UHGV virus genome: UHGV-1709118 | From: a virus | Strand: one strand, 5' to 3' | DNA length: 61,628 bases | Part shown: positions 6,366 through 59,028 of the stretch, one piece after another | Numbering within the stretch: the stretch's first letter is position 1 | How the letters are laid out: each line of letters starts with the position of its first letter | Position numbers and translations under genes: made by a program | Notes under the pieces: generated by a model | Told to the model about the DNA's origin: nothing | The model's input: only the letters and a program-made list of their open reading frames with translations | Databases searched by the model: none

Positions 6366-6974
6366 TTAATAAATAAAATCTATAATTACATTATATAAAT
6401 CTTTATATGGATTTTCTGCATCAAGTTTATATACACCATTAATACCAGTATTATATTGCGCTAACGCCACTCGATAAGCTTCATCATATACAGCCTGAAT
6501 CTGATTATATTCAGCCCAGTAAGCATTATTATGTTCAGGATATTTTTTTTCAAGCTCTGCCATAGAAACTTTTCGAGCTGTTTCCGCAGCTTCTAATTTT
6601 TTCTTACCATCTGAAAGATTTTTTTCTGTTGTTTCAGTATCTAATATGTAATTTTTAGGGCGAAGAAAATATAATCCAGTAATAGCAATATCTTCATCCA
6701 ACTCATAAACTCCCGTGCGGCCTATCATAATATTTTTATTAGTATTCATTACTAATTTAGTACCAGGAGGAGCCTGTATTCCTACTTTAGAAAATTGTTT
6801 ACTTGCATAAATTTCTACTAGATTACGAGTAAAAATATCTATTTTATTAGTTTCATAATCTGGATCAGTAGCAGAAGTAATAGTTTGAGTAGTATTGCCA
6901 TTAGCTGTAGAAATATATCCGCCACTAGAATTATAATCTTCTAAATTATAAATTATCTGACCAACATTTGCCAT
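6366..6974 (-). CDS. tail/baseplate protein, hypothetical
   Basis: 202-aa ORF in tail module. Confidence 0.4.
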   Translation of the reverse strand: MANVGQIIYNLEDYNSSGGYISTANGNTTQTITSATDPDYETNKIDIFTRNLVEIYASKQFSKVGIQAPPGTKLVMNTNKNIMIGRTGVYELDEDIAITGLYFLRPKNYILDTETTEKNLSDGKKKLEAAETARKVSMAELEKKYPEHNNAYWAEYNQIQAVYDEAYRVALAQYNTGINGVYKLDAENPYKDLYNVIIDFIY

Positions 6975-16440: not shown

Positions 16441-19400
16441 TTATTTTCTAATACTAGCATATTGAGCCGCATCATTAACAATATTATTAAGAGCTGCTTC
16501 GATTTCTGCTGCACTGGATACACCAGGGAAATCAGCTTGAATATGCACTATCTGTTCAACTATTTGCCCATCACTAGAAATGGTAGTAGAACTAGCCATA
16601 CGAGCGTTTAATAAATTTTGCCCTGCCATTATATTATTATCCAAAATTCTTTCTATTTGTTTAAACAAATTAGGCCCTAATGTTCTAACTGCGGAAACCG
16701 CAGAAAGAATATTTTCAGTATCCTCTTGATTCAAAACTAATTCTTTCTCATGTAAAAATGCTAATTTGCCATCTTCATTATCAAAAGAACCAGTATATCC
16801 TCCTGTTGCATAACCTATTGTATGACTTTTAACAAAATCCTCATATTTGCCAGTTCCGCCATTATCTTTTAGCCATTTCTGAAACTCTGGATCATTTTGC
16901 TTATTATAATAATCTTCATTAGAATAAATATACTGTTTACCTTGTTCAAAATTTTCTCCAAGAATTTTCAAATATCTTTGATATTCTAAACTCTTAAATA
17001 TTTCATCTCCAACTTGTCCACCTTGGCTTAAATAATCATTCATAACAGAAGAATAGTCAATATTAGAATTATACCCTTTCATATCACCAACAGAAGCGGC
17101 AACTGTTCTAGTAGTTACAAAGTTAGACATTTCATACAAAGTATCTAATGCTTGACGTACACACGCTGCATAATTAGACCATTGCTCTGAAGCTTGGCGA
17201 ACTTCTTCAATTTTCTTCCAAACAGCATCTGCGGCTTGAGTACCCGCAGTAGTTAAATCTTGAGTAGATTTAGTAGTATCATCAATAATTTGTTTTAAAG
17301 CATCTACATTTGAACCAGTAGTCCCAGTGACTTCTTCCATAGTGCTATTATAATTATCAGCCGCATTTTCCATTTCATCAAGAGCAGTTTCAAAATATGC
17401 AGTAAAATCAGAAGTACCCATTTGCATAATTTTCATTACATCATTATAAGTATTTCCATATTCTGTAATTATCTCTCCACCTGCATCTGTCATATCTTCT
17501 AAAGATACTTGATATTCTTGCTGAATATAAAGGATTTTATCATTTGCATTTCTACGAATTTCTGCAATCTTTTCTCCACGTTCTTCCTCAGTTAAACTTT
17601 CATCTTCATAAACATCTTTAATTTGGTCTAAAGTATCTTGTTTTAATTGCAGAATTTCATCCATCATATTTTTAACTTGATCTTTCGCTATATTGTAATA
17701 GTTATTTGCCGCATCTTCATACTTTTGTGTAGCTTCATCAATTTTAGACTGATCAGCTGTAAATTGATAATCCCAGTTGCCGGATTCATTGCGGACTAAC
17801 CGCACTGAATTTTTAGCGTTTTGAGCTTCATCCAAAGCATTTTGAGCAAGAGTCATTTGATATTTTGCTTCTAAAATATCCAAATCATATTTAGATAATT
17901 TATTACCTTCACGTCTTACTTCAATTTCTTTTTGTAATGTTTTTAATCTATTCTTAGAAGCTTCATTAGTTTCTTCATCTATTGCTTTTTGAAGTTGTCT
18001 ATTCCATTTACTTACTTCATATGTTTCATTAACTTTATCTAAATATCTTTCTTCTTTACTAATTAAATTATCATATTTTTGCTGCAATAATTCTAAACCC
18101 ATTCCGCCACTAATAGCTTGCTCAAAATCATAAGCAGCTTTCTCAATAGCATTAGTATAATACTCTCTTGCCGTTTCCATAGCTTCTTTAGCTGCATCTA
18201 ACATAGCTTCTTGAGATTCATTAAATTGTTTTAATAAAGCATCACGATTATTTTTAAGAGTATCATAAGCTGCATCTTCTTCAGTAACTCCAGCCAAAGC
18301 TTTTTCTGCTTCTGCTAATTGTTCCGCAGCTTTTTCCATCCATTGCTTTTGTAATTTGGCAGTAGATGTAGCTGTTTCTAATCTTCCTTGAATAGTTTTC
18401 TGTAAAAGTTCAAAATTCTTACCAGTTTTATAAGTTATTCCTTGTAAATCTAATAATTCTTTTACTGAATCTAATACAGTACCATTATGATCTAATTGAT
18501 CAGTAAATTGTGCAAATCTGTCAGCTGCCGCATCAATAACATCAGTTAAATACTCTCTAAGATTTTCTAACCAATCTTTTAAATCAGAAACAGTATCAGC
18601 AATATTACCATGTAAATCTTCTAAAGAATCTATAACACTTTCAAAATCAGCACTGTCTTCAGACTCAGACATAAGATTAAATATTTGATTCATATGTTCT
18701 TCTAAGTCTTTGGCTTTAGCTAAATTGTCTTGCATACCAAAGAAATCAATTTGTCCAGGTTTTTTACCCCAACTAACAGCATCGCCAAAAGCTTCAACAA
18801 CATTTTTACCTATTTCTCTATTAGTATCTTTAAAATCTTTAATCTTTAATTTAACTTCTATAACAGCATTAATACTGCTTAATTTTTCATCAAATTTCTT
18901 TCTAGCCTCTTCGGCAATATTTTCTAAAAGTTCAACTCTTTGCTTTTGATCATTTTCATATTGTTCTAAGATTTCTTTTCTTAAATCAAGCGTTTTCTTT
19001 GCAGCATCAAGAGTATCTTTAAAAGATTCCTGTGCGGTTTTAGAACCTAAAGCATTATATTTTCTTACTACTTTATTATATTCTTCTATTGCCCATTTTT
19101 CTAAATCTTCATAATTTAATAAAGCTTTACTATCAGAATCTATATTTAATTTAACACCAGAAAAATTCTTTTGTAAATCAGTTAAATCTTCTTTTAAATA
19201 TTCTTCAGTTTTTTCTAATTTTTCTTTATATAATTCTTGCTCTTTGTTAATTGCTTCAATTTTTTCTTTATATTTTTCTAATTTCTTAACACCAAAAGCT
19301 CTATCTTTAGCAGTGTCAATCTTATCTAGTAGCTGACTTTGCTCTTCTAGTCTATTATTAATATCGTGATATCTATCATCAAAAATTTCTTCATCTTCGA

Positions 19401-22400
19401 TTTCAGGAGAATCATCTGAGCCAGAGCCGCCACCTCCGCCTTTTCCTTTTCCTCCCTTTCCTTTACCACCTTTGCCTTTTCCTCCTCCTCCACCAGAAGG
19501 ACGATTATTATCAGTAGAAATACCATGAGGATTAAGAGTTCCACTGCCAGTTCCTCCTCCCGAAGGGGCAAAGGCTTTTAAACCATTGGCTAAAACTTGT
19601 TGTTGACCAAACTTTTGTAATTCTTGACCTAATAACTCTAAATTACCGCCCACACTATTATCTTTATTAGGAATAGTAACTGTAGGTTTAGCACCTTTAA
19701 TACTTTTAGAATGACCAAGACTAGCATCCATACTAAACATAGGGCTTCCGCCAGAACCACTACCCTTTAAATCAATATGTGCAGAAGGCATATCCCATTC
19801 AAAAGGAATTTTTCCTCCGGTGACTAAAGCTCCAATTTTATCCTTTAGTCCCCCGCCTAAGCCAATACCACCAGGATTATCAACAACGCCAGTTGCCTGA
19901 ATTGAATAATTAAAATTATTAATAGCTTTTCCCAAAGACACCAAAAGTTGTCCTGCTATTTGACACAAACTACCAATACTAGCCTGTGATTCAGCGGCTA
20001 GACCATTAACTGCAGAAGAAGCAATACTTGTATTTCCTTGCATGGCACTGGCTAATTGACTTTGAGAAGTAATTAAACTAGAATCAAAACCTGCGTTTTC
20101 TGCTTCCATATGGGCCATGATTGCACTAAAAGCTTCAGCATTTGTATCTTTTAAAGACCAAATATCAGCAGCCATAGTGTTACACATATTTTTGAATTTC
20201 GTTGTTGTTGTATCAAAATTATCAGGAAACTCAAGCCAATTTTCATCATTTATATAATTTTTAAAATAATCATAATAAGAAGTAATATCATCTATTGCCT
20301 TTTTAAATCCTTCGGCTTGATCAACTTGTTTTTCCCAAGTATTTAAATTTTGAACTTTTTTCTGAGCATCTTTATAATCTTGTGTAGCTTTAGTTGCATC
20401 ATCAATATTATCAGTAACAACTTTATAACCATCTGCTGTTTTGGTAATATATTTATTAGATTTAGCAGTAATATTCATTAAAGTTTTAGTGCTTTTGACT
20501 GCACCAGCATAATATTCCTGCATATTAGTGCCGCCAGCTTCAACTTCACTAATTAAATCTCTAAAACCATCTGCCAAAGCAGAAGTAGAAGAAATCATAG
20601 TTTTTGCATAATCAAATTCTTTAAGATTATCTATACCATCACTTAATTTTGCAAAATTATCTCCAGTTTCATTAACTCTTTGATTTATTGCATCAAAATA
20701 TTCACTAGCGCTAATCTTTCCCTCTTGAAACGCTTGAGCCTGTCTTCTAAGTGTTTCAGTATTTTTATCAAAATCTTCTCCACTATCTGCACGCTCTTGG
20801 TCAGACCAATTTTTACTACTTTCAATTAAACTACCATAAAGATCAACATACTGCTGAGCATATTCTCTATCAACTTTACCTTTATTTTGCATAGATTCAA
20901 TAGCTTGATCTAATGCCAATTTCTCAGCTTTTTCCATTTCAGTAAAGTCGGTTAAAGATTGAGTAGTTAAAACATACTCATCTCCAACTTTTTTAATATA
21001 TTGAGCATATTCACTATTAGCTTTAATTAGCTCATAGGTTTGATCCATAGTAAGATAGCCCTGTTCTTTATAAGACATCAAAGCTTTTTCTAACGGCTCT
21101 TCACTGGTATTTAAATTTTCTATTTTAGCTTTTGCTGCATCTAATTCAGAAGTATCTACCTTAACTTTAAGGTCTGTATTTTTAGCATTTTCAATAGCTT
21201 CCATTAATTCTCTAAAAGAACCAATGTTTTCTAAATCTAAAGTAAGAATAATATCCCAATCTTCAGCAGTTAATTTATTTAATTGCTCTTCAGTTCCACC
21301 CATTTCAGATTTAATGGTTTCTCTAGCTTGAGACATTCTTTCTGCAATTTGATTAAATAAATCATCAACAGAAATTCCCGCAGCTTCAATGGCAGAACGC
21401 ATTTCATCTGTTAGAGCTAATCCAGCACCTTTAATATCTCCAGAAGATAAAGCTCTAAAAATCTTATCTCTTACTTCATCAAAAGATTCATCATCTAATA
21501 CTGGACGAATAACCATTTCATAATACTGGTTATCAGTAGGATATATTAATTTTCTTAATTCTGCTAATTTATCCTGCATATCTGCAATCATTGACGGATC
21601 GGCCACAATTGCGCCAGAATCAACAGCACCTAAGTAATTAGCATAGTCTTGTTCTAATTCAGCTAAATCTTCTCCTACTTCAGAAGTCATTTGTGCGGTA
21701 GCTTCTGCTATTTGTTGCGTCCAATTCTGATATTGGTCTAATGCTTTTGCCTGTTGGTCAGAATTTAAACTATTATACCATTTATCTAAATCTTCTTGCG
21801 TTTTGAAGTTAGAGGTATCGGCACCAGTTTTACCTTTTGGTTCTACCTTATAAGTCTTGTCATATTTTTTGTCAAAATTATCCGCAATAGCATAAGCCAT
21901 TTCTGCTTGTTTAGCTTTAACTATACGCTCTCTTAAAGTAGCTTGTCTCTCTAAAGAAGCTTCTTGCTGTTTTAAATTAGCTAGCTCATCTTGTTCAACA
22001 AGAGACAAAGAATCTTTAGACTCTAATTCTTCTATCTTTTGTTTAGTTTGCTCTAAAGAACTATTTAACTCATCTAATTTGCTCTTTTGGTCAGTATAAT
22101 TTTGAGTAGCATCCGTAATAGCTTGGCTAGCTTCTTTTTGGGTTACAACTAAAGCATCAACTATTTTTACAATAGCAACTATTGCAAGCGGAATACCTAC
22201 CAAAACACCTAAACTTGCTAAAACCGCCGCTGCAAAATTTTGTTCTGCTAAGGTCGCAAGTCTAGTAGCTGCTGCATGAGCTAATTTCGCAGCTATATTT
22301 CCTTCTTCCGCGGCAGTTGCTAATTTTGTGACAATAGTTCCAGCTAGAGTGGTTGCATTAGCACCAGCCTGAACTGCTTTTAAATCAGCTAATCCTTTAA

Positions 22401-25014
22401 TTAAACCATTAAAAAGACTACCACCACTCATCGCAATCATACCCAAATTGGTTAAAACTTGAGTAAAAGCTTGACCAACAGTAATATTACCTTCTGTAAC
22501 ATCTTGAAAAACTTTGCCCATATTGCTTGCCGCAGAAAGAGCCATTCCAAAATTCATAAGATGATTAGACATACTTACAACTGCTGTAGCCCAATTTTGA
22601 TTACTACTATAACCAGTTTGCAAAGTTTGTACAAATTGTTTCACTTTTTCTTCTAATAATCGAGTCTTATCTGCTGCATCCATTTCTGATGCAGACAACT
22701 CTTTCATTGAAATAATAAACTGATTAATAGCTTCAGGATTACCTCCTAAATCCATTAAAGCTTGTTTTAAAACTTGTAAACCACGAGTTGCTTCACCAGA
22801 TTGAACACCTAAATTGCCAAGAAATTCCTGTAATTTTGGTGTAGACCAATTTTGCATTTCTTCTTTCCATAAGCCAGTTTTTTGAATTAATTCTTGTAAA
22901 ACATTTGAAGTTTCTTTTTGATCTAAATTTAAATTGGCATAAGCTCTTCTAACAGAATCAATAGAAGCAGCCTGAGAAGCAAGTTTTTGCATATTAGCAG
23001 TAATCTTTTCAACTGTTGTATTTACGTCGGTAAAAGCTTGACCGTTTTTAAATATATAAGGAATATCAATATTTATTTTTGCGCTATTAGATACACTAGA
23101 ATTAAATTGTTGAATCCTTTGTTTGAACTTATCTTCCCATCCTGGTTTTGGTTCTATATCTAATAATATAGTAGTTTTATATTCTTCCATATTACCAAGT
23201 AAAGAAGTCTGCTTTTGAGCAGAAGCTACCACTTGCTGACGTAAAACTTCAATGGTACTTAAATCTTGATTAACCTTAGCCATTTGACTTTGATCATAAT
23301 TTTTAGTATATTTATTAATCATACCTTGCAATTGAACTTTTTCTCGCATTAGAGAAATTTCAGTTTCTAAAGCACGATTACCACCAATTATAATATCAAG
23401 ATTTTCCGCTTCAGCGACAGTTTGTTCTTGTAGGCTTCTTGTTAATTTTCCTTGATAACCTGTCATAATCTGAATATTAGTAGCAAAATTTTGTAAACCA
23501 TTTATCAATTTACCGCTATAAACAGAAGTAAGAACAGAACCAACAACCAAAGCAATACCTTTTAATCCACCTAAAGCATTAACAACTTGTGCTATTCCGC
23601 TTAAAAGTGGAGTTAAAACATCATCAATAGCAACAATGCTCTCAGGATTCAAAATGCTATCATAAATATCTTCAGCCGCAGCTTTAACTCTTTTTCTTGC
23701 AGCTTCCCAAGATTCTGCATAAATATCAGCTTGTTTATTTAATTCACCCTCAGAATTTTGAGCAACTTTTAAATTATCTTCAAAGAAATCCCAGTTATCC
23801 ATTAAAGAAACTAGCTGATTATATTGACGAACACCAGCTACTGTTTGTGCTAATGCTACTTGCTGGTCTTTTGCTAAAGTACCCCATTTTGCGCCTATAT
23901 CATCTAAGATAGAATCCATATTACGCAATTCACCATTAGAATCTTTAATTAAAATGCCAACTTTACTTAAAGCTTCCGAATATTTATTTAAATCAGTACC
24001 ATCTTCAAGAGTTTCCCCTAAATTTAAACCTTGAATACGAGCAAAGATAGTTTTTAAAGCAGTACCAACGACATCTTCACTTTGACGAGTTGTAGCAGTA
24101 ATTGTTGCCAAAGCAGAAGCAGCATAATCAAAGCTCAATCCAATCATGTCTGCGATTGATGCAAACTTCTCTAAACCACCTGCAATCTCATCCGAACTAG
24201 AAGCAGTAGCAGCACCTAATGCCACCATCGCATCAGCATAATGCTCTAATGATTGTGAACCATCATAGAAGTTATTCCAAACCGCAGTTAATTGGTCAGA
24301 AACTACTTGAGCACTTTCATTTGCGGCATTAGCCATTTTAATAGTAATATCAGTTCTATCAAGAACTTCTTTATCATTTAAACCTTGCTGATAATATATC
24401 AATGCTGCGTCCGTATAATCTGTTGTTGTTGTACTTAAATTTTTTGCAGCACTATTAGCTTGAACTGCAAAATCAGCCATTTGTTCAGCTGACTGTCCAG
24501 TAACAATTCTAATAGAATTTAAAGATTTGTCTAAAGCTTTAGAATACCCAACACAAGTATTTAAAGCTCCCATAAATCCATGTAACGCACTTGAAGTTAA
24601 TTGCCAACGAGCAGTATTTTTCATTGTTGTCCACAATTCATCTAATACTTTATTAGTACGTCTCATCGGTAATTCCGCAGAAGTAACTGCTTGCGCAACT
24701 TTCATAAAAGCTTGCTGACCAGTAGGGCCTAATTGAGATAATTGCTTAGCATAATCACTAATGGTCATCTTACTATTAGCTAAATTTCTATTAAAAGTTA
24801 CTAAATCTAATTTTCCTGTTTCTTGATTAGTAGCAGTTTTTAAATTATTAGCTAATTCTAATGCAGATTTAGATGCTTCCCGCATACCCTGAGTCATTTG
24901 AGTAGTTGAAGAAGTACCTAATTTTTGTAAAGCTTTTACAGCATCATTTAAAGACGCTTTTAATTGTGAAGTATCGCCAGTAAAGCCTACTTCATAATTA
25001 AGTCTTTTAGCCAT
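16441..25014 (-). CDS. tail tape measure protein
   Basis: 2857-aa, largely helical/coiled-coil ORF between chaperone-like gene and tail tip genes; internal Gly/Lys low-complexity tract. Confidence 0.8.
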   Translation of the reverse strand: MAKRLNYEVGFTGDTSQLKASLNDAVKALQKLGTSSTTQMTQGMREASKSALELANNLKTATNQETGKLDLVTFNRNLANSKMTISDYAKQLSQLGPTGQQAFMKVAQAVTSAELPMRRTNKVLDELWTTMKNTARWQLTSSALHGFMGALNTCVGYSKALDKSLNSIRIVTGQSAEQMADFAVQANSAAKNLSTTTTDYTDAALIYYQQGLNDKEVLDRTDITIKMANAANESAQVVSDQLTAVWNNFYDGSQSLEHYADAMVALGAATASSSDEIAGGLEKFASIADMIGLSFDYAASALATITATTRQSEDVVGTALKTIFARIQGLNLGETLEDGTDLNKYSEALSKVGILIKDSNGELRNMDSILDDIGAKWGTLAKDQQVALAQTVAGVRQYNQLVSLMDNWDFFEDNLKVAQNSEGELNKQADIYAESWEAARKRVKAAAEDIYDSILNPESIVAIDDVLTPLLSGIAQVVNALGGLKGIALVVGSVLTSVYSGKLINGLQNFATNIQIMTGYQGKLTRSLQEQTVAEAENLDIIIGGNRALETEISLMREKVQLQGMINKYTKNYDQSQMAKVNQDLSTIEVLRQQVVASAQKQTSLLGNMEEYKTTILLDIEPKPGWEDKFKQRIQQFNSSVSNSAKINIDIPYIFKNGQAFTDVNTTVEKITANMQKLASQAASIDSVRRAYANLNLDQKETSNVLQELIQKTGLWKEEMQNWSTPKLQEFLGNLGVQSGEATRGLQVLKQALMDLGGNPEAINQFIISMKELSASEMDAADKTRLLEEKVKQFVQTLQTGYSSNQNWATAVVSMSNHLMNFGMALSAASNMGKVFQDVTEGNITVGQAFTQVLTNLGMIAMSGGSLFNGLIKGLADLKAVQAGANATTLAGTIVTKLATAAEEGNIAAKLAHAAATRLATLAEQNFAAAVLASLGVLVGIPLAIVAIVKIVDALVVTQKEASQAITDATQNYTDQKSKLDELNSSLEQTKQKIEELESKDSLSLVEQDELANLKQQEASLERQATLRERIVKAKQAEMAYAIADNFDKKYDKTYKVEPKGKTGADTSNFKTQEDLDKWYNSLNSDQQAKALDQYQNWTQQIAEATAQMTSEVGEDLAELEQDYANYLGAVDSGAIVADPSMIADMQDKLAELRKLIYPTDNQYYEMVIRPVLDDESFDEVRDKIFRALSSGDIKGAGLALTDEMRSAIEAAGISVDDLFNQIAERMSQARETIKSEMGGTEEQLNKLTAEDWDIILTLDLENIGSFRELMEAIENAKNTDLKVKVDTSELDAAKAKIENLNTSEEPLEKALMSYKEQGYLTMDQTYELIKANSEYAQYIKKVGDEYVLTTQSLTDFTEMEKAEKLALDQAIESMQNKGKVDREYAQQYVDLYGSLIESSKNWSDQERADSGEDFDKNTETLRRQAQAFQEGKISASEYFDAINQRVNETGDNFAKLSDGIDNLKEFDYAKTMISSTSALADGFRDLISEVEAGGTNMQEYYAGAVKSTKTLMNITAKSNKYITKTADGYKVVTDNIDDATKATQDYKDAQKKVQNLNTWEKQVDQAEGFKKAIDDITSYYDYFKNYINDENWLEFPDNFDTTTTKFKNMCNTMAADIWSLKDTNAEAFSAIMAHMEAENAGFDSSLITSQSQLASAMQGNTSIASSAVNGLAAESQASIGSLCQIAGQLLVSLGKAINNFNYSIQATGVVDNPGGIGLGGGLKDKIGALVTGGKIPFEWDMPSAHIDLKGSGSGGSPMFSMDASLGHSKSIKGAKPTVTIPNKDNSVGGNLELLGQELQKFGQQQVLANGLKAFAPSGGGTGSGTLNPHGISTDNNRPSGGGGGKGKGGKGKGGKGKGGGGGSGSDDSPEIEDEEIFDDRYHDINNRLEEQSQLLDKIDTAKDRAFGVKKLEKYKEKIEAINKEQELYKEKLEKTEEYLKEDLTDLQKNFSGVKLNIDSDSKALLNYEDLEKWAIEEYNKVVRKYNALGSKTAQESFKDTLDAAKKTLDLRKEILEQYENDQKQRVELLENIAEEARKKFDEKLSSINAVIEVKLKIKDFKDTNREIGKNVVEAFGDAVSWGKKPGQIDFFGMQDNLAKAKDLEEHMNQIFNLMSESEDSADFESVIDSLEDLHGNIADTVSDLKDWLENLREYLTDVIDAAADRFAQFTDQLDHNGTVLDSVKELLDLQGITYKTGKNFELLQKTIQGRLETATSTAKLQKQWMEKAAEQLAEAEKALAGVTEEDAAYDTLKNNRDALLKQFNESQEAMLDAAKEAMETAREYYTNAIEKAAYDFEQAISGGMGLELLQQKYDNLISKEERYLDKVNETYEVSKWNRQLQKAIDEETNEASKNRLKTLQKEIEVRREGNKLSKYDLDILEAKYQMTLAQNALDEAQNAKNSVRLVRNESGNWDYQFTADQSKIDEATQKYEDAANNYYNIAKDQVKNMMDEILQLKQDTLDQIKDVYEDESLTEEERGEKIAEIRRNANDKILYIQQEYQVSLEDMTDAGGEIITEYGNTYNDVMKIMQMGTSDFTAYFETALDEMENAADNYNSTMEEVTGTTGSNVDALKQIIDDTTKSTQDLTTAGTQAADAVWKKIEEVRQASEQWSNYAACVRQALDTLYEMSNFVTTRTVAASVGDMKGYNSNIDYSSVMNDYLSQGGQVGDEIFKSLEYQRYLKILGENFEQGKQYIYSNEDYYNKQNDPEFQKWLKDNGGTGKYEDFVKSHTIGYATGGYTGSFDNEDGKLAFLHEKELVLNQEDTENILSAVSAVRTLGPNLFKQIERILDNNIMAGQNLLNARMASSTTISSDGQIVEQIVHIQADFPGVSSAAEIEAALNNIVNDAAQYASIRK

Positions 25015-33326: not shown

Positions 33327-33989
33327 TCAAGCAATACGCTGTAATTTAACTGCGGGCTGATTATCGGCTAAAGTATAAACCTTAACAACAATCCACTTCA
33401 TATCGCCAGCACCGGCGGAAGCAGCAGAAGCCTTATTCAAAAAGCCCTTCTCGTTAGGAGCTAATTCATCGCCCTCTTGTAGGCTAGTTTCATCAACACC
33501 ATTGGTAGTATAAATATCGCCGACATTAGTCTTGATAACACGAGGAACCATAGTAGTGCCATCAGCCATATTCTGAGGATAACTTAACTTAGGAATATCC
33601 CAAGTAAAGCCCTCGCTGGAACCCTCACGGAAAGCAGCCTTACTATAATCCATCACATGTTCTAAATCAGAATTACTCTGACCAACAGGACTATAAACAC
33701 GAGCATTATAATTCTGCTTAATCATAGCAAAATCTTCATAAGTCTCACGGTCTCTATAAGTCTTAACTTCATTAAAGACCATCATCCACTCGCCCTTACC
33801 AGTGAAATTAACTTCTTTATTCACATAGTCATACTTCACAAACTGGCCATTTTCCAAAACTTCAATATCACTCTTAGCGGGAAGCTGTGCGTAAATCTGA
33901 CCAGTGCGCTGAGCAGATAAATGGTTAGGCTCGACCTGGCTATAACCACGCTTAACAAACTGAGCACCGCTTAATCTTTTAATTGCCAT
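33327..33989 (-). CDS. capsid-associated protein (decoration or scaffold) candidate
   Basis: 220-aa GC-rich ORF immediately upstream of capsid gene. Confidence 0.35.
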   Translation of the reverse strand: MAIKRLSGAQFVKRGYSQVEPNHLSAQRTGQIYAQLPAKSDIEVLENGQFVKYDYVNKEVNFTGKGEWMMVFNEVKTYRDRETYEDFAMIKQNYNARVYSPVGQSNSDLEHVMDYSKAAFREGSSEGFTWDIPKLSYPQNMADGTTMVPRVIKTNVGDIYTTNGVDETSLQEGDELAPNEKGFLNKASAASAGAGDMKWIVVKVYTLADNQPAVKLQRIA

Positions 33990-40303: not shown

Positions 40304-41350
40304 TTAACCTCTTTTCTTATTTCTACAACATTTACATATACTGTACCAACCATCTTTACTTGTTTTATTTTTTGAAAAGAAATCATTATGGGCTGGTTTA
40401 AGTTGACCACATTTTGAACATTTTTTTAAAGGTTTATTTAAAAGTTTATATTGCCAAAAAATAAAATCTTCTTTAGCAGCTTGCGCTATTAACTTAGGAA
40501 TTTTATTCCGCCATAAACTAGAAATATATTCCAAACTATGTTTAATACCAAATTCTGTTTGTAATAATTGCTGAATTTCAATATTCTGCTTTCCATCAAT
40601 TTTATATTCAACTAATCTTTCATATAAGGGAAAATTAGCTAAAGCTAACTCACTAATTTCGTCAAAAGACTGAATTAAGTACCAAGTATCTCCTTCAAAA
40701 TTATCATAACTATCTTGTTTTAATCGTGAATAGTTACATAAAATCGCAGAACATATTTCAGGGTTCATTAATGAAACTCCACTAATATGTACTTCTCCAT
40801 CTTCATCAATAGTAGAATTATCTTCCAATTTAATAAAACCACTTAATGAACGAGTTAATTTATTAAAAATAATTGGACGTTGATATGCTTGTTTTATTAT
40901 ATATTGGTCTTTCCGCATATCTATTAAAGCCTTTTTCATAATATACGCATCTCTACCTGAAGTGCGTTTAAGGACGGCATCCCAATCATTAATTGTATTT
41001 CTTAATTGTTGCAAATAAGGTATATTTTCTAAATCTTTTTTAGTAATTGAAATTTTAGGTTGAAAAATTGTATTTTTATTTTCAGAAATTAAATTATAAA
41101 TGCCGTCTTCGCCATTTTCTAACTGGCTGACAAGACCCTCAAAAGAAGTTTCACGTTTATTAACTGTAGTTAAACGATTTTCTGTTAAAATTTTCTTTTC
41201 TTTTTTCTCTTGCTTTTCCATACAAAGAATTAAATAATCCGCAAGCACTTCTAAATAAGAAGAATTTAGATCAGGGTTTTCTGCGATTATTTTTTCAACT
41301 AATTCTTTACGCTCTTCAGGAGATTCTAATGTATAATCTAATTTAATCAT
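40304..41350 (-). CDS. hypothetical protein with C-terminal Zn-ribbon (first gene of late operon)
   Basis: 348-aa ORF ending CSKCG...CKCC. Confidence 0.35.
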   Translation of the reverse strand: MIKLDYTLESPEERKELVEKIIAENPDLNSSYLEVLADYLILCMEKQEKKEKKILTENRLTTVNKRETSFEGLVSQLENGEDGIYNLISENKNTIFQPKISITKKDLENIPYLQQLRNTINDWDAVLKRTSGRDAYIMKKALIDMRKDQYIIKQAYQRPIIFNKLTRSLSGFIKLEDNSTIDEDGEVHISGVSLMNPEICSAILCNYSRLKQDSYDNFEGDTWYLIQSFDEISELALANFPLYERLVEYKIDGKQNIEIQQLLQTEFGIKHSLEYISSLWRNKIPKLIAQAAKEDFIFWQYKLLNKPLKKCSKCGQLKPAHNDFFSKNKTSKDGWYSICKCCRNKKRG

Positions 41351-47639: not shown

Positions 47640-47819
47640 ATGAAGCAAACTTATTCTATCTATCATGCTGGCGATGAAGAAATTATCGGGCCTTTTGATT
47701 CCTTTTCATTGGCAGAGGATTTCTTTCATAGGTTAGCTCAGTATGCTACTACAATGTATTACTTGGTAGATGATTCTACTGGTGAAATTCTTCTTGATAT
47801 TGAAGAAATTAAGGCTTGA
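47640..47819 (+). CDS. hypothetical small protein (59 aa, not in ORF track)
   Basis: ATG 47640 preceded by ataggagg; open to TGA 47817-47819. Confidence 0.35.
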   Translation: MKQTYSIYHAGDEEIIGPFDSFSLAEDFFHRLAQYATTMYYLVDDSTGEILLDIEEIKA

Positions 47820-47877
47820 CATTTGGGCCTTACCGTGGTATAATTACCATAGAAACAAAGGAAAGAGGTTGATACTT

Positions 47878-48333
47878 ATGACTGACAAGATGTTGGCTTT
47901 TGATATGGACGGCACTATTGCTGACCTGTATGGAGTTAATGGTTGGCTGTCTAAACTGCGGAAGGAAGATGCAAGCCCTTACCTGGAAGCTAAACCCATG
48001 TGGGATGTGGATAAGCTCAACGAGCTTATCAATAAACTAAAGCAGGCTGGTTGGGAGATTGCAATCATCACTTGGCTTTCTAAAGAAAGCAGTCCTGAGT
48101 ATGCAAAGGCTGTGCGAGAAGCTAAAAAGGCTTGGCTCTTGAAATGGGGTTTCCCCTATGATCATTTTCATGGTCTAAAGTATGGAGCTACTAAAGCGAA
48201 TGCTGTTCGTAGAAAAGCATCTAAGGCAATTCTTATTGATGATAATAAGAAGGTTCGTGATAGTTGGCATTTGGGAGAAACTGTCAATCCTGAAACTTGT
48301 GACATCATTGATTTTTTGGCTTCCCTGCTTTAA
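47878..48333 (+). CDS. HAD-superfamily phosphatase, 5-prime(3-prime)-deoxyribonucleotidase-like
   Basis: N-terminal FDMDGTIADL motif (DxDGT); start at ATG 47878 after promoter and RBS. Confidence 0.55.
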   Translation: MTDKMLAFDMDGTIADLYGVNGWLSKLRKEDASPYLEAKPMWDVDKLNELINKLKQAGWEIAIITWLSKESSPEYAKAVREAKKAWLLKWGFPYDHFHGLKYGATKANAVRRKASKAILIDDNKKVRDSWHLGETVNPETCDIIDFLASLL

Positions 48334-48353
48334 GCAGGGAGTCAAAAAAGTTC

Positions 48354-48382
48354 TTGACAAATGAGAAAAAATCTGGTATAAT
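48354..48382 (+). promoter_or_regulatory. early promoter
   Basis: TTGACA 48354-48359, 17-bp spacer, TGgTATAAT; leader acagaaattaagaaagaggt. Confidence 0.55.
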
Positions 48383-48415
48383 GAGTACAGAAATTAAGAA
48401 AGAGGTAGATGCAAC

Positions 48416-49123
48416 ATGAGCATTGATAGGCGCAGACATTATGTTCTGCTTCTGGACACTGAGACAGCAAACACCATCACTGACCAAAAAGGCCGATTAG
48501 ACATGACCTCAGTTCTTGTCTATGATTGCGGGTGGTGTGTTATGGACACAAGAGGAAATATCTACAAGGAACAATCCTTTGTTAATCGAGATATTTTCTT
48601 TGATGAAAGTGAGCTTATGAAATCCGCCTACTATGCGGAAAAGATTCCCCAGTATCTGGAAGATATTCGACAGGGTATCCGGCAAGTAGCTAACACTTAC
48701 CAGATTCGACAGGCTATGCTTGCAGACATGGCAGAATATGGTATTACAGAGGTAGTTGCCCACAATGCAAGATTCGACCTGAACGCATTGAATTTACTTC
48801 AACGCTGGACTACCAAAAGTAAATATCGCTATTGGTTCCCCTATGGTACCGATATTTGGGATACTCTCAAAATGGCAAGAGACGTTATTCTAAAGATGCC
48901 TACCTATAAAAGGTTCTGTGAACAACACGGTTTCTTAACCAAAACTGGTAAACTCTCAGCGACAGCAGAAAATTTGTATAGATTCATCTCCAAAGACCCT
49001 ACTTTTCAGGAAGAACATAAAGGTCTTGACGATGTGCGAATTGAGCGAGAGATTATGGTCTACTGCTATCGGCAAAAGAAGAAAATGCGGAAAAAACTTT
49101 TTGAAAATCAAAAAACCGCTTGA
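48416..49123 (+). CDS. DnaQ-like 3-prime-5-prime exonuclease (DEDDh)
   Basis: Exo motifs LLLDTETAN, VAHNARFDL, EHKGLDDV. Confidence 0.6.
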   Translation: MSIDRRRHYVLLLDTETANTITDQKGRLDMTSVLVYDCGWCVMDTRGNIYKEQSFVNRDIFFDESELMKSAYYAEKIPQYLEDIRQGIRQVANTYQIRQAMLADMAEYGITEVVAHNARFDLNALNLLQRWTTKSKYRYWFPYGTDIWDTLKMARDVILKMPTYKRFCEQHGFLTKTGKLSATAENLYRFISKDPTFQEEHKGLDDVRIEREIMVYCYRQKKKMRKKLFENQKTA

Positions 49124-49232
49124 CAAAACAAAAGGAAAATGATATAATATAAGAGAAGTGAGGGAGATAAAACCCTCCCCACTTCCTTAACAATTAGGGT
49201 AGCGACCTACCGCACAGAAAGGAATTGATATT

Positions 49233-49589
49233 ATGACTAACGAGAAGAAGATTACTAACAAGGGCGCCCTTCAGTATGTTCTGGACAACTGCGAGATTCC
49301 TGCCGACGTTCGTGCCAAGATTGAGATTCTGCTCCATCAGCAGGAGAACAAGAGCCGCGGTAGTGGTAAGCCTACTGCAACTCAGACTGAGAACGCACGT
49401 CTGATTGAGGTGATTGCCGACACTCTGCCCAAGGGCGAAGCTTTCACCATCTCCGACATTACCAAGACCATTCCTGAGCTGAACGGCTTTACCCCTCAGA
49501 AGGTTGGCCCCATGCTCAAGAAGCTGGTTGAAACTGGTCGAGCCACCCGTGACACCAACAAGGGCAAGGCATACTACACTATGGTGTAA
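49233..49589 (+). CDS. hypothetical protein, paralog of 55318-55734 (possible winged-helix)
   Basis: shared motifs with 55318 ORF (QTEN...LI...KTIPEL...TPQ...PM.K.LV..G.A..DT.KG.A); about 50 percent GC. Confidence 0.5.
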   Translation: MTNEKKITNKGALQYVLDNCEIPADVRAKIEILLHQQENKSRGSGKPTATQTENARLIEVIADTLPKGEAFTISDITKTIPELNGFTPQKVGPMLKKLVETGRATRDTNKGKAYYTMV

Positions 49590-49648
49590 TAATTAAATAA
49601 AGAGGGGCATTAAGCCCCTCTTTATTTTCTCAAAAAGGATGGTGTTTA

Positions 49649-50011
49649 ATGATAGATGAGACTAGGGTTAAACATCTTCAAAAGGTGTTAGACCTTGATA
49701 GAGAACAAGCTTTAGCAGTTATTGCCGATGATGAAGCAATAGATAAAGGTGCAGATCTTTTCCCACTTACTGATGAACAAAAGAAAGTAGAAAAGAAAAT
49801 GCGGTTATCCGGCAAAGAGAAAGGCAAGTATACTATGAATGCTCCCCGACAGCGCAAGGTTGACAATGACAAACATCGCTTGATTGAGATTATTGCGGAA
49901 TCTCTTGAACAACTTGAAATTGAAACTACCATCAATAACCCAGAACGAGAAATTGAGATAGTTTTTAATGAAAGACGTTTCAAAATTACATTAAGCGCTC
50001 CTAGAAAATAA
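49649..50011 (+). CDS. hypothetical protein, paralog of 55759-56148
   Basis: shared DKG...LT-EQ-KV-KK ... LI ... NPER-I ... F ... TL motifs. Confidence 0.5.
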   Translation: MIDETRVKHLQKVLDLDREQALAVIADDEAIDKGADLFPLTDEQKKVEKKMRLSGKEKGKYTMNAPRQRKVDNDKHRLIEIIAESLEQLEIETTINNPEREIEIVFNERRFKITLSAPRK

Positions 50012-50263
50012 TAATAAAACCGGCTTATTTTTTATAGGCCGGTTTTCTTTTTTGCCCAATACTTTTTAATGGCAAATGTTTGACGGCCCGCGCATGGTCA
50101 AGCGCTGCCGCATTTCAATTATACCAGGTAATCCGACTTTTGTCAATGGGCAAACCGCACAATTATTTGACTTTTTGTTTTCCCAAAATTGGTGATTCTG
50201 CCTATTGATTTTTTTATTAAAATTTTATATAATATAATTGTTCCAAGGGAAAGGAGAAACAAA

Positions 50264-51248: not shown

Positions 51249-51446
51249 ATGACTAAAGAAGAACTTTTAAACACTTTGCAGGAGGTCGGCTATGAATGGA
51301 GCAGAACGCTCAATGAGCACAAGTATGACTACTCGGATTTCGAGTGGAAGATGCTCGGCTGGGTAGCTGGTGAATTGATTGACCATTTCGATCAGGCAAT
51401 TGATTCAATTCGTGATGAACTTCAGGAGGAGGAAGAAGAAGAATGA
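51249..51446 (+). CDS. hypothetical acidic small protein
   Basis: 65-aa ORF. Confidence 0.45.
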   Translation: MTKEELLNTLQEVGYEWSRTLNEHKYDYSDFEWKMLGWVAGELIDHFDQAIDSIRDELQEEEEEE

Positions 51447-51776: not shown

Positions 51777-51980
51777 ATGACAGATTTTGCAAGAACTGAA
51801 ATTCTTCTTAAAGCTTTACAGGAAGCAGGAAGATACATGCGGAAATATTTACCCGCAGAAATGCCATTAGGCGAAGATGCTGATATTACAAGATACTGTT
51901 TAATAAATGGTAATCAAGACCCGGAAGGCTCTAAGTTTGTAGAATACTTCATTCTTAAAGCATTTGATAATTATAAGTAA
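51777..51980 (+). CDS. hypothetical early protein
   Basis: 67-aa ORF after promoter TTGACA 51722-51727 and RBS aaggaga. Confidence 0.45.
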   Translation: MTDFARTEILLKALQEAGRYMRKYLPAEMPLGEDADITRYCLINGNQDPEGSKFVEYFILKAFDNYK

Positions 51981-52226
51981 GGGCTAAAAGCCCTTACTTT
52001 TTTATTTCTATATTTATTATAAACAAAAGTCAAGTGATAGTAAAGTTTGGCGGCGCGTTGATGGCTGACATGCGCCGCAATTTAATTATACCTCAAGCCA
52101 CGCCTTTTGTCAAGAGCAAAAGTGCATAAAAACAAGGCAGACAAAAATCCCGAATTTGTGCATTTCGCCAATAGACAAATAAGACCTGCCGTGTTATACT
52201 ATAATCACAGTAAGGGAGGAGATAAC

Positions 52227-52937: not shown

Positions 52938-53336
52938 ATGAAAGCTACTGGTATCATTCGCCGCATCGATGACCTGGGTCGGGTGGTCATCCCCAAGGAA
53001 ATCCGCCACAATATGCACATCTGGGAAGGAGACCCTTTGGAGATTTATACTGCTTCGGATGAAATTGTTCTCCGCAAGTATGTTCCATCCGCAGAAAACA
53101 AGGCTTCTATTGCTCAGAAGTGGTTAGAGGACAATGCTCATATGTTATATGGCACTTCTGCAAAGTTCAGTATTGAGGGCAGAACTACTGTTTGCGAAGT
53201 TATCAGCAATAATCATCGCCTGACTGGAAAAGCAACAGCCACAACAAATGACACTTTCATTCCCGCGGTTGGTATGGTTATTGCTTATTGCCGAGCCGTT
53301 GGTTGGACTATTCCCAAAGAACTTATTGAGGATTAA
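52938..53336 (+). CDS. AbrB/SpoVT-family transcriptional regulator-like protein
   Basis: N-terminus GIIRRIDDLGRVVIPKEIRHNMHIWEGDPLEIY...IVLRKY matches AbrB swapped-hairpin domain signature. Confidence 0.6.
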   Translation: MKATGIIRRIDDLGRVVIPKEIRHNMHIWEGDPLEIYTASDEIVLRKYVPSAENKASIAQKWLEDNAHMLYGTSAKFSIEGRTTVCEVISNNHRLTGKATATTNDTFIPAVGMVIAYCRAVGWTIPKELIED

Positions 53337-54524: not shown

Positions 54525-54613
54525 AAATCTTTCACTTTGTGCAATTTATCTATTGACAAAACAAAGCAAAGATGCTATAATGAATACAGAAATTAAGAAA
54601 GGAACTGATAGCT

Positions 54614-54835
54614 ATGCTGTGTATGAAGAACGTGTTCAATGTCATGAAAGGTATCACTCGCGTAAGAGATAAGTTCAGAGGAAAAGGGTTCACTTTTTCT
54701 GAGTATAGCACCGATGACTATCAGAATTACTTACGTTATTTACAGACTGCGTTTGAATTAAAAACTATGGACAAAGAGCAGGAACTTGACAAATTGAAAG
54801 CTAATCTTGACAAAGTGGAAAAGGAAATGAGATAA
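54614..54835 (+). CDS. hypothetical small protein
   Basis: 73-aa ORF; bidirectional-type terminator 54841-54867 follows. Confidence 0.45.
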   Translation: MLCMKNVFNVMKGITRVRDKFRGKGFTFSEYSTDDYQNYLRYLQTAFELKTMDKEQELDKLKANLDKVEKEMR

Positions 54836-54881
54836 AAAAATGAGGGATTTTTCCCTCATTTTTTTTTGTACATTTTGCCTA

Positions 54882-54910
54882 TTGACAAAACCGCAGCTTT
54901 ATGGTACAAT
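54882..54910 (+). promoter_or_regulatory. promoter driving ORF-free GC-rich hairpin transcript
   Basis: TTGACA 54882-54887, 17-bp spacer, TGgTACAAT 54902-54910. Confidence 0.5.
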
Positions 54911-55020
54911 GGCGCGGCGCCCACGGCTGTGGAGCGCCGAAATTTCAATTATACCACGCGGCACAAAATTTGTCAAGAGTTAAACTGCACAAAATCTATT
55001 TGGGAAAAATCCCACTTTTT
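54911..55020 (+). ncRNA. candidate small RNA (5-prime GC hairpin, weak terminator)
   Basis: promoter immediately upstream; hairpin 54911-54939; gggaaaaatccca + T-run at 55001-55020; no RBS-ATG ORF. Confidence 0.3.
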
Positions 55021-55317
55021 GTGCAATTTGCCTATTGCAATTTGGGTGAAATCTGATATAATAAATAATGTCAGGAGGGAGTAGCCCAAGAAATCCTAGG
55101 GCGGCCGACTTAGAGAAAGTATAGGAAGTAAACGGAATACATCAAGTGGTAAGTCTTATATCATGTGGTAATTGTTATTGCCCAACATGCTCTGGAAGCC
55201 GTAAATCTTGTGAAAAGTTTGCGAAACCTCTTGACAAACCCCAAGAAACATGCTATAATAAGCATGTAATCAAGAGAAGGACAAACTCTTAAAAACCAGA
55301 AAGCGAGATAGGTGTTT

Positions 55318-55734
55318 ATGGAAAATACTAACAAGAGAATTACTAAGCGTGAGCGTTTCCAGTCTTTGATTGAGCTGGTGGAACTGTGCGAAGGCCGTGA
55401 GGATGAAGGCTTTGACTTTGAGGGTCTGACCGATTTCCTTTCCAATGAGATTCGCCTGCTGGACGCTAAGAAGGGTTCCAATTCCCGCAAGCAGACTGCC
55501 CGCCAGACTGAGAATGAGCATTTTAAGGCTCTGATTGCCGAGCGGTTGACCGAAGAGGGCATGACTATTGCAATGCTCCGCAAGACCATTCCTGAACTGG
55601 AGGATTTGACTCCCCAGCGTATTGCCCCTATGTGCAAGGCTCTTGTCTCTGAGGGTATTGCTTACAAGGATACCTGCAAGGGTATCGCCCACTTTTACAA
55701 GGCGCAGGCCGTAGTAGAAGAGGAAGAGGGCTAA
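55318..55734 (+). CDS. hypothetical protein, paralog of 49233-49589
   Basis: see paralog; ATG 55318. Confidence 0.5.
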   Translation: MENTNKRITKRERFQSLIELVELCEGREDEGFDFEGLTDFLSNEIRLLDAKKGSNSRKQTARQTENEHFKALIAERLTEEGMTIAMLRKTIPELEDLTPQRIAPMCKALVSEGIAYKDTCKGIAHFYKAQAVVEEEEG

Positions 55735-55758
55735 GGCCCTCTTCCCTAGAAGGGAGGT

Positions 55759-56148
55759 ATGTTTTTGGATAAAGCAAAAGAAGCAATCGCAAGAATCCAA
55801 GCCGGCATCAAATGCAGCTATGAAAAAGCAGTAGAAATCTATAAGACAGATTGCGAGGTTGACAAAGGCATCCCGCATGAATGGGATTTGACCGAGGAAC
55901 AGCAAAAGGTAGCAAAGAAATATACTATTACCGGGCAACATACTAAGAAGCATGACCGCAAGGCTCCGGTCAAAAGAGAAAGAAAAGAGAACCCCACTAA
56001 AGCAAATTTGATTGCGGAACTTGCAGGTTTTCTTGAATCTTTGGGGATTTGTGACGTAAAAATTGCAAATCCTGAGCGACAGATTGCTTTTTCTGTGGAT
56101 AATAACGCCTTTGAGCTGACTTTAGTTCAAAAAAGGGCCAAAAAGTAA
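55759..56148 (+). CDS. hypothetical protein, paralog of 49649-50011
   Basis: see paralog; RBS gggagg. Confidence 0.5.
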   Translation: MFLDKAKEAIARIQAGIKCSYEKAVEIYKTDCEVDKGIPHEWDLTEEQQKVAKKYTITGQHTKKHDRKAPVKRERKENPTKANLIAELAGFLESLGICDVKIANPERQIAFSVDNNAFELTLVQKRAKK

Positions 56149-56205
56149 AGTTTTTGGCCCTTTTCACTTAAAAAAGAGCTAATTTTGACGAAAAAGGTGA
56201 TGTAA

Positions 56206-57101: not shown

Positions 57102-57377
57102 ATGAATGAACGCAGAGACTTCATTGCAAAGAACTGGGGTGAGGATGTTCTTGAAGCTATTGATAGCTGTGAGCCGTTAAACATTACCTTTGGCCAGTTT
57201 TTGGACAAGTGCGTTGCTTGCGGTGGCAACTGGGGCGGTATGCTTCTAACTGGCCTGAAGAAGTTGCGGCCTGAGATTTGGGAAGCCATTCCCCAAAATA
57301 TGGGTCTTTATGCTTGGCAGTGCATCTGCAATACTTTAATCCTTGCTGGTGTGGTTATGGAAGAAGAAGAGGGCTAA
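57102..57377 (+). CDS. hypothetical early protein
   Basis: 91-aa ORF after promoter TTGACA-TGcTATAAT and conserved leader. Confidence 0.45.
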   Translation: MNERRDFIAKNWGEDVLEAIDSCEPLNITFGQFLDKCVACGGNWGGMLLTGLKKLRPEIWEAIPQNMGLYAWQCICNTLILAGVVMEEEEG

Positions 57378-57410: not shown

Positions 57411-57692
57411 ATGGAAATTAGAAAACCTACGAATTGGTTGGATGCTAAAGGGATGCTTGACAAAACACTACAAGCAAGATCTACAGTAATCACTGAAGCC
57501 CTTGGGCAAATTATGTTTAATCTTCTAAGTGCCGCAGAAGATGGAAAATTTGCTACTACTATTAATCTTCTAGAAGATACAAAAATTATTACTCAAATAC
57601 TTGAGGAAGCAGACTATAAGGTTCAATTTCTTAAACCAAATGGTGAATACTCACAATATATTGTTTGCTGGGAAAAGGAGGACGAAGAATAA
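57411..57692 (+). CDS. hypothetical early protein
   Basis: 93-aa ORF. Confidence 0.45.
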   Translation: MEIRKPTNWLDAKGMLDKTLQARSTVITEALGQIMFNLLSAAEDGKFATTINLLEDTKIITQILEEADYKVQFLKPNGEYSQYIVCWEKEDEE

Positions 57693-58827: not shown

Positions 58828-59028
58828 ATGTTGAAAACTGAATTTGCCAGAAAGCTGGACTCGACTGGTCGATTAGTTATCCCTTCTAAGTTAAGAGATT
58901 ATCTAGGAATGGAAACCGGCCAGTTATTTACTTTTTATATTCAAAAAGAAGAAAATGGAGATGTGTATTTGTGTGTGAAGTGTCCTAGTAATAAAATAAA
59001 ATTTACTTTTGGTGAAAATGCCGATTGA
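58828..59028 (+). CDS. AbrB/MazE-like small DNA-binding protein
   Basis: RKLDSTGRLVIPSKLRDYLGMETGQLFTFY matches AbrB/SpoVT swapped-hairpin signature. Confidence 0.5.
   Translation: MLKTEFARKLDSTGRLVIPSKLRDYLGMETGQLFTFYIQKEENGDVYLCVKCPSNKIKFTFGENAD

Follow-up and report, generated by a model that had tools for sequence, protein, structure and literature searches.

Winged-helix DNA-binding proteins (of the ArsR, PadR, MarR, and Fur types, together with Z-alpha and the Hop2/Mnd1 winged helix) are the closest known fold group to a phage protein family, called A here, whose genes lie upstream of those of a second family, B, in two gene pairs of an uncultivated gut phage. Unlike those proteins, A carries additional helices at its N terminus and a basic linker marked by an invariant motif of its own, is encoded by a multicopy phage early gene, and belongs to no Pfam, NCBIfam, or PDB sequence family. 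The predicted layout of A resembles that of the H-NS-like nucleoid protein Rok, which consists of an N-terminal dimerizing helix, a linker, and a C-terminal winged helix. In Bacillus subtilis, Rok is an abundant protein whose activity a small partner, sRok, modulates (PMC9757077). Among phage proteins, Gp27 of SPO1 is a small protein that has N-terminal helices that self-associate and a disordered, Lys-rich linker that binds DNA, ends in a small effector domain, and drives the early-to-middle switch (PMC13401047). SPO1, like the phage described here, relies on a sigma factor of its own and on numerous strong early promoters of the sigma-A type. The C-terminal domain of Gp27 is a two-helix RNA polymerase (RNAP) binder, whereas A and B have a winged helix and an alpha+beta3 domain, respectively; moreover, Gp27 is not described as a duplicated two-gene cassette (PMC13401047), and its likeness to A and B is an analogy by description. 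The same holds for T7 Gp5.7, a small winged-helix-turn-helix-like protein that acts as a repressor of those promoters of the phage genome that host RNAP uses (PMC5569994); unlike A, it is a 7-kDa, single-domain, single-copy protein without a dedicated partner gene.

The window (the whole 61,628-nucleotide stretch of DNA analyzed here) is part of a large tailed phage. Its late block lies on the minus strand and encodes a 2,856-aa tape-measure protein and a portal. A sigma-factor-family gene (40304 to 41350, minus strand; 347 aa; phrog_5767, E = 1.3e-40) heads this block, which implies a switch from host-sigma to phage-sigma transcription. The C-terminal ~50 residues of its product also match HNH/endonuclease VII-like zinc-finger profiles. 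The match of the tape-measure-family protein (16441 to 25014, minus strand) to phrog_4211 (E = 7e-70) is confined to the N-terminal ~500 residues, and the 1,423-aa protein that comes next has no PHROG match; this implies a tail of exceptional length or a tape-measure protein with several functions. The early block, on the plus strand, is made up of small genes with consensus sigma-70 promoters and additionally encodes ClpP, a cell-wall hydrolase, an AbrB/MazE-like protein, and a T5orf172 protein. A 137.7-kb IMG/VR contig represents essentially the same phage. A comparison of portals places phAss-1 (38%) and Enterococcus and Bacillus phages of about 140 kb closest among deposited relatives; the predicted hosts of the phAss-1 group are Clostridia/Eubacteriales (PMC10607447), in agreement with the metagenome-assembled genome (MAG) bins that hold B homologs. 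A megablast search of the region against GenBank phages gave no match, and tblastn searches with A1, B2, and a consensus-like A member returned a sole match, the unannotated fecal phage fragment MT835855.

All four plus-strand open reading frames (ORFs) that an earlier note on this DNA had reported as two paralogous gene pairs are present (Table 1). Since the family N terminus reads MENT.KRITK, the ATG at 55318 is the correct start of A2. Pairwise alignment, the check that the note had proposed, gave significant similarity for both proteins and bore out the paralogy: in BLASTP comparisons, A1 and A2 were 47% identical over 76 aa (E = 2e-19), with an alignment that covers only the C-terminal two thirds, and B1 and B2 were 34% identical over 117 aa (E = 1e-15). 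The two pairs have the same gene order and lie on the same strand. Family hidden Markov models (HMMs) found exactly two A genes and two B genes in the window (E values of 1e-33 to 1e-41; next best, E > 0.1). Both pairs had also been described as about 50% GC, which is true of the A genes but not of the B genes, whose GC content is near that of the surrounding early block (0.35 to 0.42). We also considered whether A and B are paralogs of each other. A1 and B1 alone yielded a pairwise E value of 3e-4 over a 46-aa stretch, and they have a locally similar helix (RLIEVIADTL in A1 and RLIEIIAESL in B1). Profile comparison with hhalign did not support mutual paralogy (E = 0.12 to 0.17, probability of <1%), though the alignment was collinear, and it likewise gave no support to a version in which the B C-terminal domain is a winged helix without H2-H3.

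Table 1 Positions of the two gene pairs and of the expression signals and hairpin units around them
Feature	Position in window	Strand	Description
A1	49233-49589	+	118-aa ORF; N-terminal helices, basic linker, C-terminal winged helix; GC 0.52, GC3 0.64
B1	49649-50011	+	120-aa ORF; partner protein, B type 1; GC 0.37; groups with B genes of relatives' upstream pairs
A2	55318-55734	+	138-aa ORF; winged helix, acidic C-terminal tail; GC 0.50, GC3 0.58
B2	55759-56148	+	129-aa ORF; partner protein, B type 2; GC 0.41
Promoter of pair 1	49120-49148	+	TTGACA-17-TGnTATAAT; 12/12 consensus match; in repeat family D1 of early promoters
Promoter of pair 2	55231-55259	+	TTGACA-17-TGnTATAAT; 12/12 consensus match
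A1-B1 hairpin	49595-49627	+	14-bp perfect stem and T-run; inverted repeat I10; terminator pattern
Terminator past B1	50016-50046	+	A-run and T-run on flanks; bidirectional in appearance
A2-B2 hairpin 1	55722-55745	+	10-bp stem with A2 stop codon within loop; read from sequence
A2-B2 hairpin 2	55741-55757	+	Overlaps hairpin 1; pairs with B2 ribosome-binding site; listed by scan
Terminator past B2	56131-56164	+	Overlaps last codons of B2; inverted repeat I14; terminator pattern
Minus-strand units	50010-50146, 51970-52113, 54830-54976	-	Perfect sigma-70 promoters at 50146, 52113, and 54976
TTTGTGCA promoter subclass	52155-52181, 54536-54562, 54865-54891, 55018-55044	+	Reverse complement inside the three minus-strand units

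Protein A begins with N-terminal helices, which are followed by a basic linker that contains the invariant motif K-x-T-x-x-Q-x-x-N and by a C-terminal domain whose H1-b1-H2-H3-b2-b3 topology and structural similarity to solved winged-helix domains identify it as a winged helix. The prediction for this domain is confident, which makes the suggestion in the earlier note of a DNA-binding protein plus a partner plausible; the N-terminal helices, modeled with pLDDT values of 43 to 66, probably mediate self-association. Residues N87, N88, Q89, K90, R96, K110, G111, and K112 of the recognition helix and wing are conserved, and A may, in view of this pattern, bind nucleic acid through these elements. 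Searches of Pfam, PHROGs, NCBIfam, and PADLOC gave no functional family for any of the four proteins or for any member of their families. None of 58 A members reached the Pfam gathering threshold of a winged-helix regulator family (MarR, PadR, ArsR, Fur, or Rok); the best subthreshold matches were SAMD1_WH (E = 0.006; 11 members) and WH_Rok (E = 0.009; 1 member). Profile searches against PDB sequences returned noise, with no winged-helix family at an E value of 10 or below. We rejected membership of A in the Rok family on the basis of the Pfam, structure, and PDB-profile comparisons. Forty-three of the 58 members match phrog_19455, a PHROG without an assigned function (best E = 1.3e-8), so A is a catalogued phage protein family, although by way of the family and not of the window proteins alone (E = 0.17 for A1 and 0.021 for A2). 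Eight of the 58 also match phrog_12880 ("head scaffolding protein"; E of about 2.5e-5) over A residues 11 to 65, which span the N-terminal helices and the KKN..KPT.TQ..N linker (e.g., in member P0132), versus positions 164 to 216 of the 228-position profile. We rejected a scaffolding role because this match is local only and because A genes sit in the early block and not in the head module. The gene at the scaffold position of the window (33327 to 33989) falls into other PHROGs and shows no relation to A.

The AlphaFold2 (AF2) model of B2 (pLDDT, 83.7) consists of a three-helix N-terminal domain, a disordered linker, and an alpha+beta3 C-terminal domain. The linker is conserved and basic and contains R-K-E-N-P-T-K. 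No structural match to the B2 model was found. One of 51 B members weakly matches phrog_9462 (E = 7e-4), and this single match leaves B essentially uncatalogued. In a deep B profile search, the best 150 matches were all 106 to 158 aa long, and none was a domain fusion.

The earlier note had also proposed looking for the pair in other genomes, and the pair proved to be widespread among related phages. B2 has 1,707 homologs in a 90%-clustered database, B has 1,392 representatives at 50% identity, and a profile search found at least 307 A homologs without a Pfam domain or a meaningful name. We mapped both families by HMM in 105 related loci and counted pairs in the 89 nonredundant ones. The A-B cassette occurs in essentially all 105 loci, most of which have two pairs a few kilobases apart. 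A gene of family A lies immediately upstream of, and on the same strand as, 137 of 140 B genes, with a median gap of 63 nt. Solo B genes are rare, whereas 29 of 166 A genes stand alone; B thus follows A, and A does not need B. A third, solo A gene without B is common in relatives (e.g., at 6818 to 7252 in L001, 8982 to 9416 in L013, and 7764 to 8135 in L104), and the window has none. Gene content between and around the pairs differs from locus to locus, but the A-B junction is constant. The presence of A next to nearly every B and of two pairs in most loci indicates that the cassette is ancient and conserved, as is its duplication. In the B-profile scan, matches were limited to viral contigs and phage-size MAG contigs (up to ~176 kb), mostly from Clostridia bins, and included no isolate chromosome or plasmid. 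The pairs are conserved, syntenic core early genes of this clade, not sporadic accessory genes.

The B tree has two deep clades, with 40 type 1 and 75 type 2 members, and the B types follow each other in the order 1 and then 2 in 31 of 37 two-pair loci. Relatives whose B2 orthologs are only 45 to 50% identical already hold both a B1-type pair and a B2-type pair. These observations agree with the ancient duplication of the whole pair that had been proposed. Distances between the two B proteins of one genome are 0.63 to 0.68, versus 0.47 to 0.54 within a type, and the C-terminal domain is the most divergent part (0.73 between types versus 0.38 within type 2). The A proteins behave differently: their distances show no type structure (0.59 for 1-1, 0.62 for 2-2, and 0.63 for 1-2 comparisons), and the two A copies of one genome have a mean distance of only 0.34 (range, 0.11 to 0.64) across all three protein regions. 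The A1/A2 pair of the window (0.64) is the most diverged within-genome case. The subfunctionalization that the earlier note had suggested for the pair therefore fits B, with its two deep subfamilies and divergent C-terminal domains, but does not fit A across the family. This evolutionary asymmetry of A and B is unusual. The distance matrices of A and B are correlated (Mantel r = 0.44; permutation maximum, 0.13), a correlation confounded by shared phylogeny.

Recent gene conversion does not explain why A copies are alike within genomes. Synonymous sites of these copies are saturated and their upstream regions are unrelated, which excludes it, and the fraction of identical codons at conserved residues is about 0.5 even in A pairs that are 80 to 89% identical as proteins, the same as in the old pair of the window. 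The likeness reflects either old homogenization followed by strong purifying selection or coevolution at the protein level.

The divergence of B1 and B2 bears on an alternative reading, in which A and/or B would be host-takeover or anti-defense effectors that target host proteins instead of DNA, by binding and inhibiting a host factor such as an RNAP subunit, a nucleoid protein, or a restriction or immune protein. The winged helix would be a protein-interaction or DNA-mimic-binding module, and two B isoforms would be directed at two host variants. That B1 and B2 differ most in the C-terminal domain is expected of a target-recognition surface; in addition, B lacks a known fold, A2 combines an acidic tail with a pI of 5.1, and the pairs sit among small early genes with strong promoters, like the SPO1 host-takeover module. 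However, anti-defense genes are typically sporadic and turn over fast, whereas A-B is syntenic and nearly universal in about 100 relatives, and its two B types are ancient and conserved. Nucleic acid contact would suit the polar and basic residues that are invariant in the A recognition helix and wing, and neither protein matches a known anti-defense or defense family. We therefore consider the effector reading unlikely.

The pairs had been credited with their own promoters and terminators. Perfect promoters and hairpins are indeed present (Table 1), but they do not set the pairs apart: about 17 equally perfect promoters of this type are spread over the plus strand from 47.2 to 57.1 kb, which amounts to roughly one for each small gene or operon, so that having a promoter of its own is a property of the whole block. 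Each A-B pair resembles a moron in having a separate promoter and terminator and in the deviant composition of its A gene (but not of its B gene); however, every gene of the block has such signals, and morons are sporadic, accessory elements, whereas the A-B cassette is conserved and syntenic clade-wide. A near-consensus promoter precedes A in 107 of 114 pairs, and B has a separate one in 37 of 115; tight coexpression of A and B is thus not universal. The A-B intergenic region folds with a mean energy of -32.5 kcal/mol versus -18.7 kcal/mol in shuffled sequences (z < -2 in 99% of cases). This region holds a hairpin that is found family-wide, has a G-run and a C-run and a median energy of -26 kcal/mol, and mostly lacks a U-tail. 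The hairpin downstream of A1 does carry a T-run, unlike the usual family member, and may be an intercistronic terminator or an RNA-stability element. No operator-like DNA repeats common to both modules were found; the modules have only promoter hexamers and A coding similarity in common.

Codon composition suggests strong expression of A. Although they are mutually only 30 to 40% identical, 166 A genes have a GC content of 0.50 and a GC3 of 0.63 in loci with a GC content of 0.41, and the GC3 of B genes in these loci is 0.48. A deviation that outlasts such divergence argues for selection and against recent import. The likeliest cause is codon or mRNA optimization for high expression, of which GC3 is an indirect proxy. 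The genes of the two families look like the most expression-optimized genes of the early block, and A is probably abundant. That A copies are alike within a genome, are codon biased, and are often joined by extra solo copies suggests selection for dosage, and the overall A pattern looks like either dosage or concerted evolution.

The organization of the pairs bears on two further readings. In the first, A and B would be mere neighbors, i.e., two independent early genes caught in a segmental duplication and held together by synteny alone. The separate B promoters, the strong hairpin between the genes, the solo A genes, and the different evolutionary modes of A and B would all be compatible with this idea. 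Nevertheless, A is directly upstream of nearly every B in very divergent genomes and in both paralogous copies, the junction is constant where flanking genes vary, and solo B genes are almost absent, so that mere adjacency seems distinctly improbable. The second is a type II toxin-antitoxin system, with A as the DNA-binding antitoxin and B as the toxin. Two small adjacent genes with their own promoter, the first of which encodes a protein with a DNA-binding fold, would fit such a system, and the B C-terminal domain shows a nonsignificant likeness to a HicA-like toxin in BFVD (E = 0.43). However, no toxin or antitoxin family was found in Pfam, NCBIfam, or PADLOC, the upstream gene is apparently far more highly expressed, and B is preceded by a strong hairpin or terminator and, in one third of cases, by a promoter of its own. 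In addition, the pair consists of two-copy core early genes, and the matches of the B-profile scan were confined to phage-like contigs and to MAG contigs no longer than about 176 kb, with none in an isolate chromosome or plasmid. The toxin-antitoxin-like or anti-defense pair that the earlier note had given as examples conflicts with this phage-only, core, and syntenic distribution, and we regard a toxin-antitoxin role as extremely improbable.

By analogy with the systems described above, we tentatively favor a reading in which A and B are an abundant early DNA-binding protein and its isoform-specific partners, acting in transcriptional takeover or DNA organization; it is a possible account, and we hold it with reservation. 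The two modules are old paralogous copies of a conserved early cassette from a clade whose members are large tailed phages of gut Clostridia. Under this proposal, A would be an abundant nucleic-acid binder made off host sigma-A promoters directly upon infection, and it would serve as a common winged-helix subunit of which several copies are held for dosage. B would be an accessory partner dependent on A, with B1 and B2 as two ancient isoforms that lend the A-B complex different specificities. Together, A and B would reshape transcription or DNA organization in the takeover; for example, they might shut off or retarget the many consensus early promoters before the phage sigma factor drives late genes. 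Paralogy, conservation, synteny, folds, expression signals, codon bias, and evolutionary asymmetry come directly from the analysis, whereas DNA binding, the abundance of A, an A-B interaction, and the transcriptional role are inferred. Points against the proposal are that neither family matched a functionally annotated one, that winged helices can also make protein-protein and RNA contacts, that an acidic pI such as that of A2 is unusual in a DNA-coating protein, that one third of B genes have a promoter of their own, and that the two modules share no repeated operator-like motif. A and B are uncharacterized families within a known general kind, that of small phage early DNA-binding or regulatory proteins. 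Both are large, conserved, and absent from Pfam, and they come from a widespread uncultivated clade of 100- to 200-kb gut Clostridia viruses. Should A prove to be an abundant takeover protein that binds DNA and has two alternative partners, the cassette would offer an entry point to phage silencing or redirecting of host transcription, and it would illustrate cleanly how, once a cassette has been duplicated, one gene stays homogeneous, presumably for dosage, while the other subfunctionalizes.

Another reading would make the pairs organizers of replication origins, with A as an origin-binding winged-helix initiator (compare phage replisome organizers and the DnaD N-terminal domain), B as a loader or adaptor, and the two cassettes serving two origins. 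Besides the fold of A, this reading draws on nucleotide-metabolism-like and exonuclease-like genes just upstream of pair 1 (47770 to 49123), recognized by the motifs DMDGT and LLDTETA, and on a structured noncoding region that adjoins each pair. Pfam searches with these upstream genes did not confirm the motif readings. The A genes contain and adjoin no iterons or repeated boxes, no replisome-organizer, DnaD, or helicase-loader family was matched, no AT-rich unwinding element was identified, and initiators are not usually multicopy and codon optimized. We accordingly give an origin function little credence.

Three paralogous minus-strand units of about 100 nt lie inside the plus-strand early block (Table 1), one of them 54 nt past B1 and another about 375 nt ahead of A2. 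Each has a promoter with an upstream TTGTGCA motif, a GC-rich 5' hairpin of 27 nt (CGGC...GCCG), a short stretch that is conserved, and a terminator about 100 nt downstream, and their RNA folds have z scores of -3.4 to -7.4. A covariance model found 197 copies of the hairpin element (E <= 0.01) in 65 of the related loci (L001 to L105), all opposite to the early-gene strand. The outer helix is paired in 94% of cases, with double-sided changes at all six pairs, and its covariation score was 0.39 versus 0.16 in shuffles (0 of 500 reached 0.39) and at most 0.17 for slid partners, in an alignment that was fitted to the model and so favors the structure. RNAalifold on a MAFFT alignment undercalled the hairpin owing to register shifts, and we used anchored counting and the covariance model instead. 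A near-consensus promoter ends 3 to 4 nt upstream of 76 of 147 copies, compared to 0.5% of controls; other copies have a TTGTGCAAC motif about 25 nt upstream. Fifty-two of 124 copies lie 200 to 600 nt upstream of an A gene, and others are often found just past a B gene. A search of the whole window against Rfam gave no match. These units are a candidate new class of phage noncoding RNA, and any functional tie between the hairpin element and A-B is putative.

A promoter subclass in the same region carries, about 9 nt ahead of the -35 box, a conserved TTTGTGCA(A/T)TT element. A regulator of the phage might use this motif as its operator. Promoters of this class on the plus and minus strands overlap back-to-back, and each falls within the transcript of the other. 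The approximately 480 nt upstream of A2 (54836 to 55317) hold no convincing ORF, three plus-strand promoters, and one minus-strand promoter. A bolder extension of the proposal for A and B would make A a dosage-selected phage "chromatin" or global DNA binder with two to three homogenized copies per genome and B1 and B2 its ancient isoform-specific modulators, which together with the hairpin antisense units on either side of the cassettes would form an undescribed early circuit governing the switch from sigma-A to the phage sigma factor in this large clade of gut Clostridia phages; we think it rather improbable.

In the same early block, an AbrB/SpoVT-type DNA-binding gene at 52938 to 53336 (plus strand) has a Pfam MazE_antitoxin match (E = 1e-9), and a second putative one at 58828 to 59028 (plus strand) is recognized only by the N-terminal motif LDSTGRLVIPSKLR read from its translation; the two would be another duplicated small regulator. 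Acidic C-terminal tails are encoded by A2 (...VVEEEEG, 55719 to 55734) and by the genes at 57102 to 57377 (...VVMEEEEG; tail at 57360 to 57377), 51249 to 51446 (...EEEEEE, 51426 to 51446), and 57411 to 57692 (...EKEDEE, 57680 to 57692). At least two of these tails are encoded by the purine-rich 5' arm of a terminator hairpin that overlaps the stop codon, and acidic tails may thus be by-products of RNA structure.
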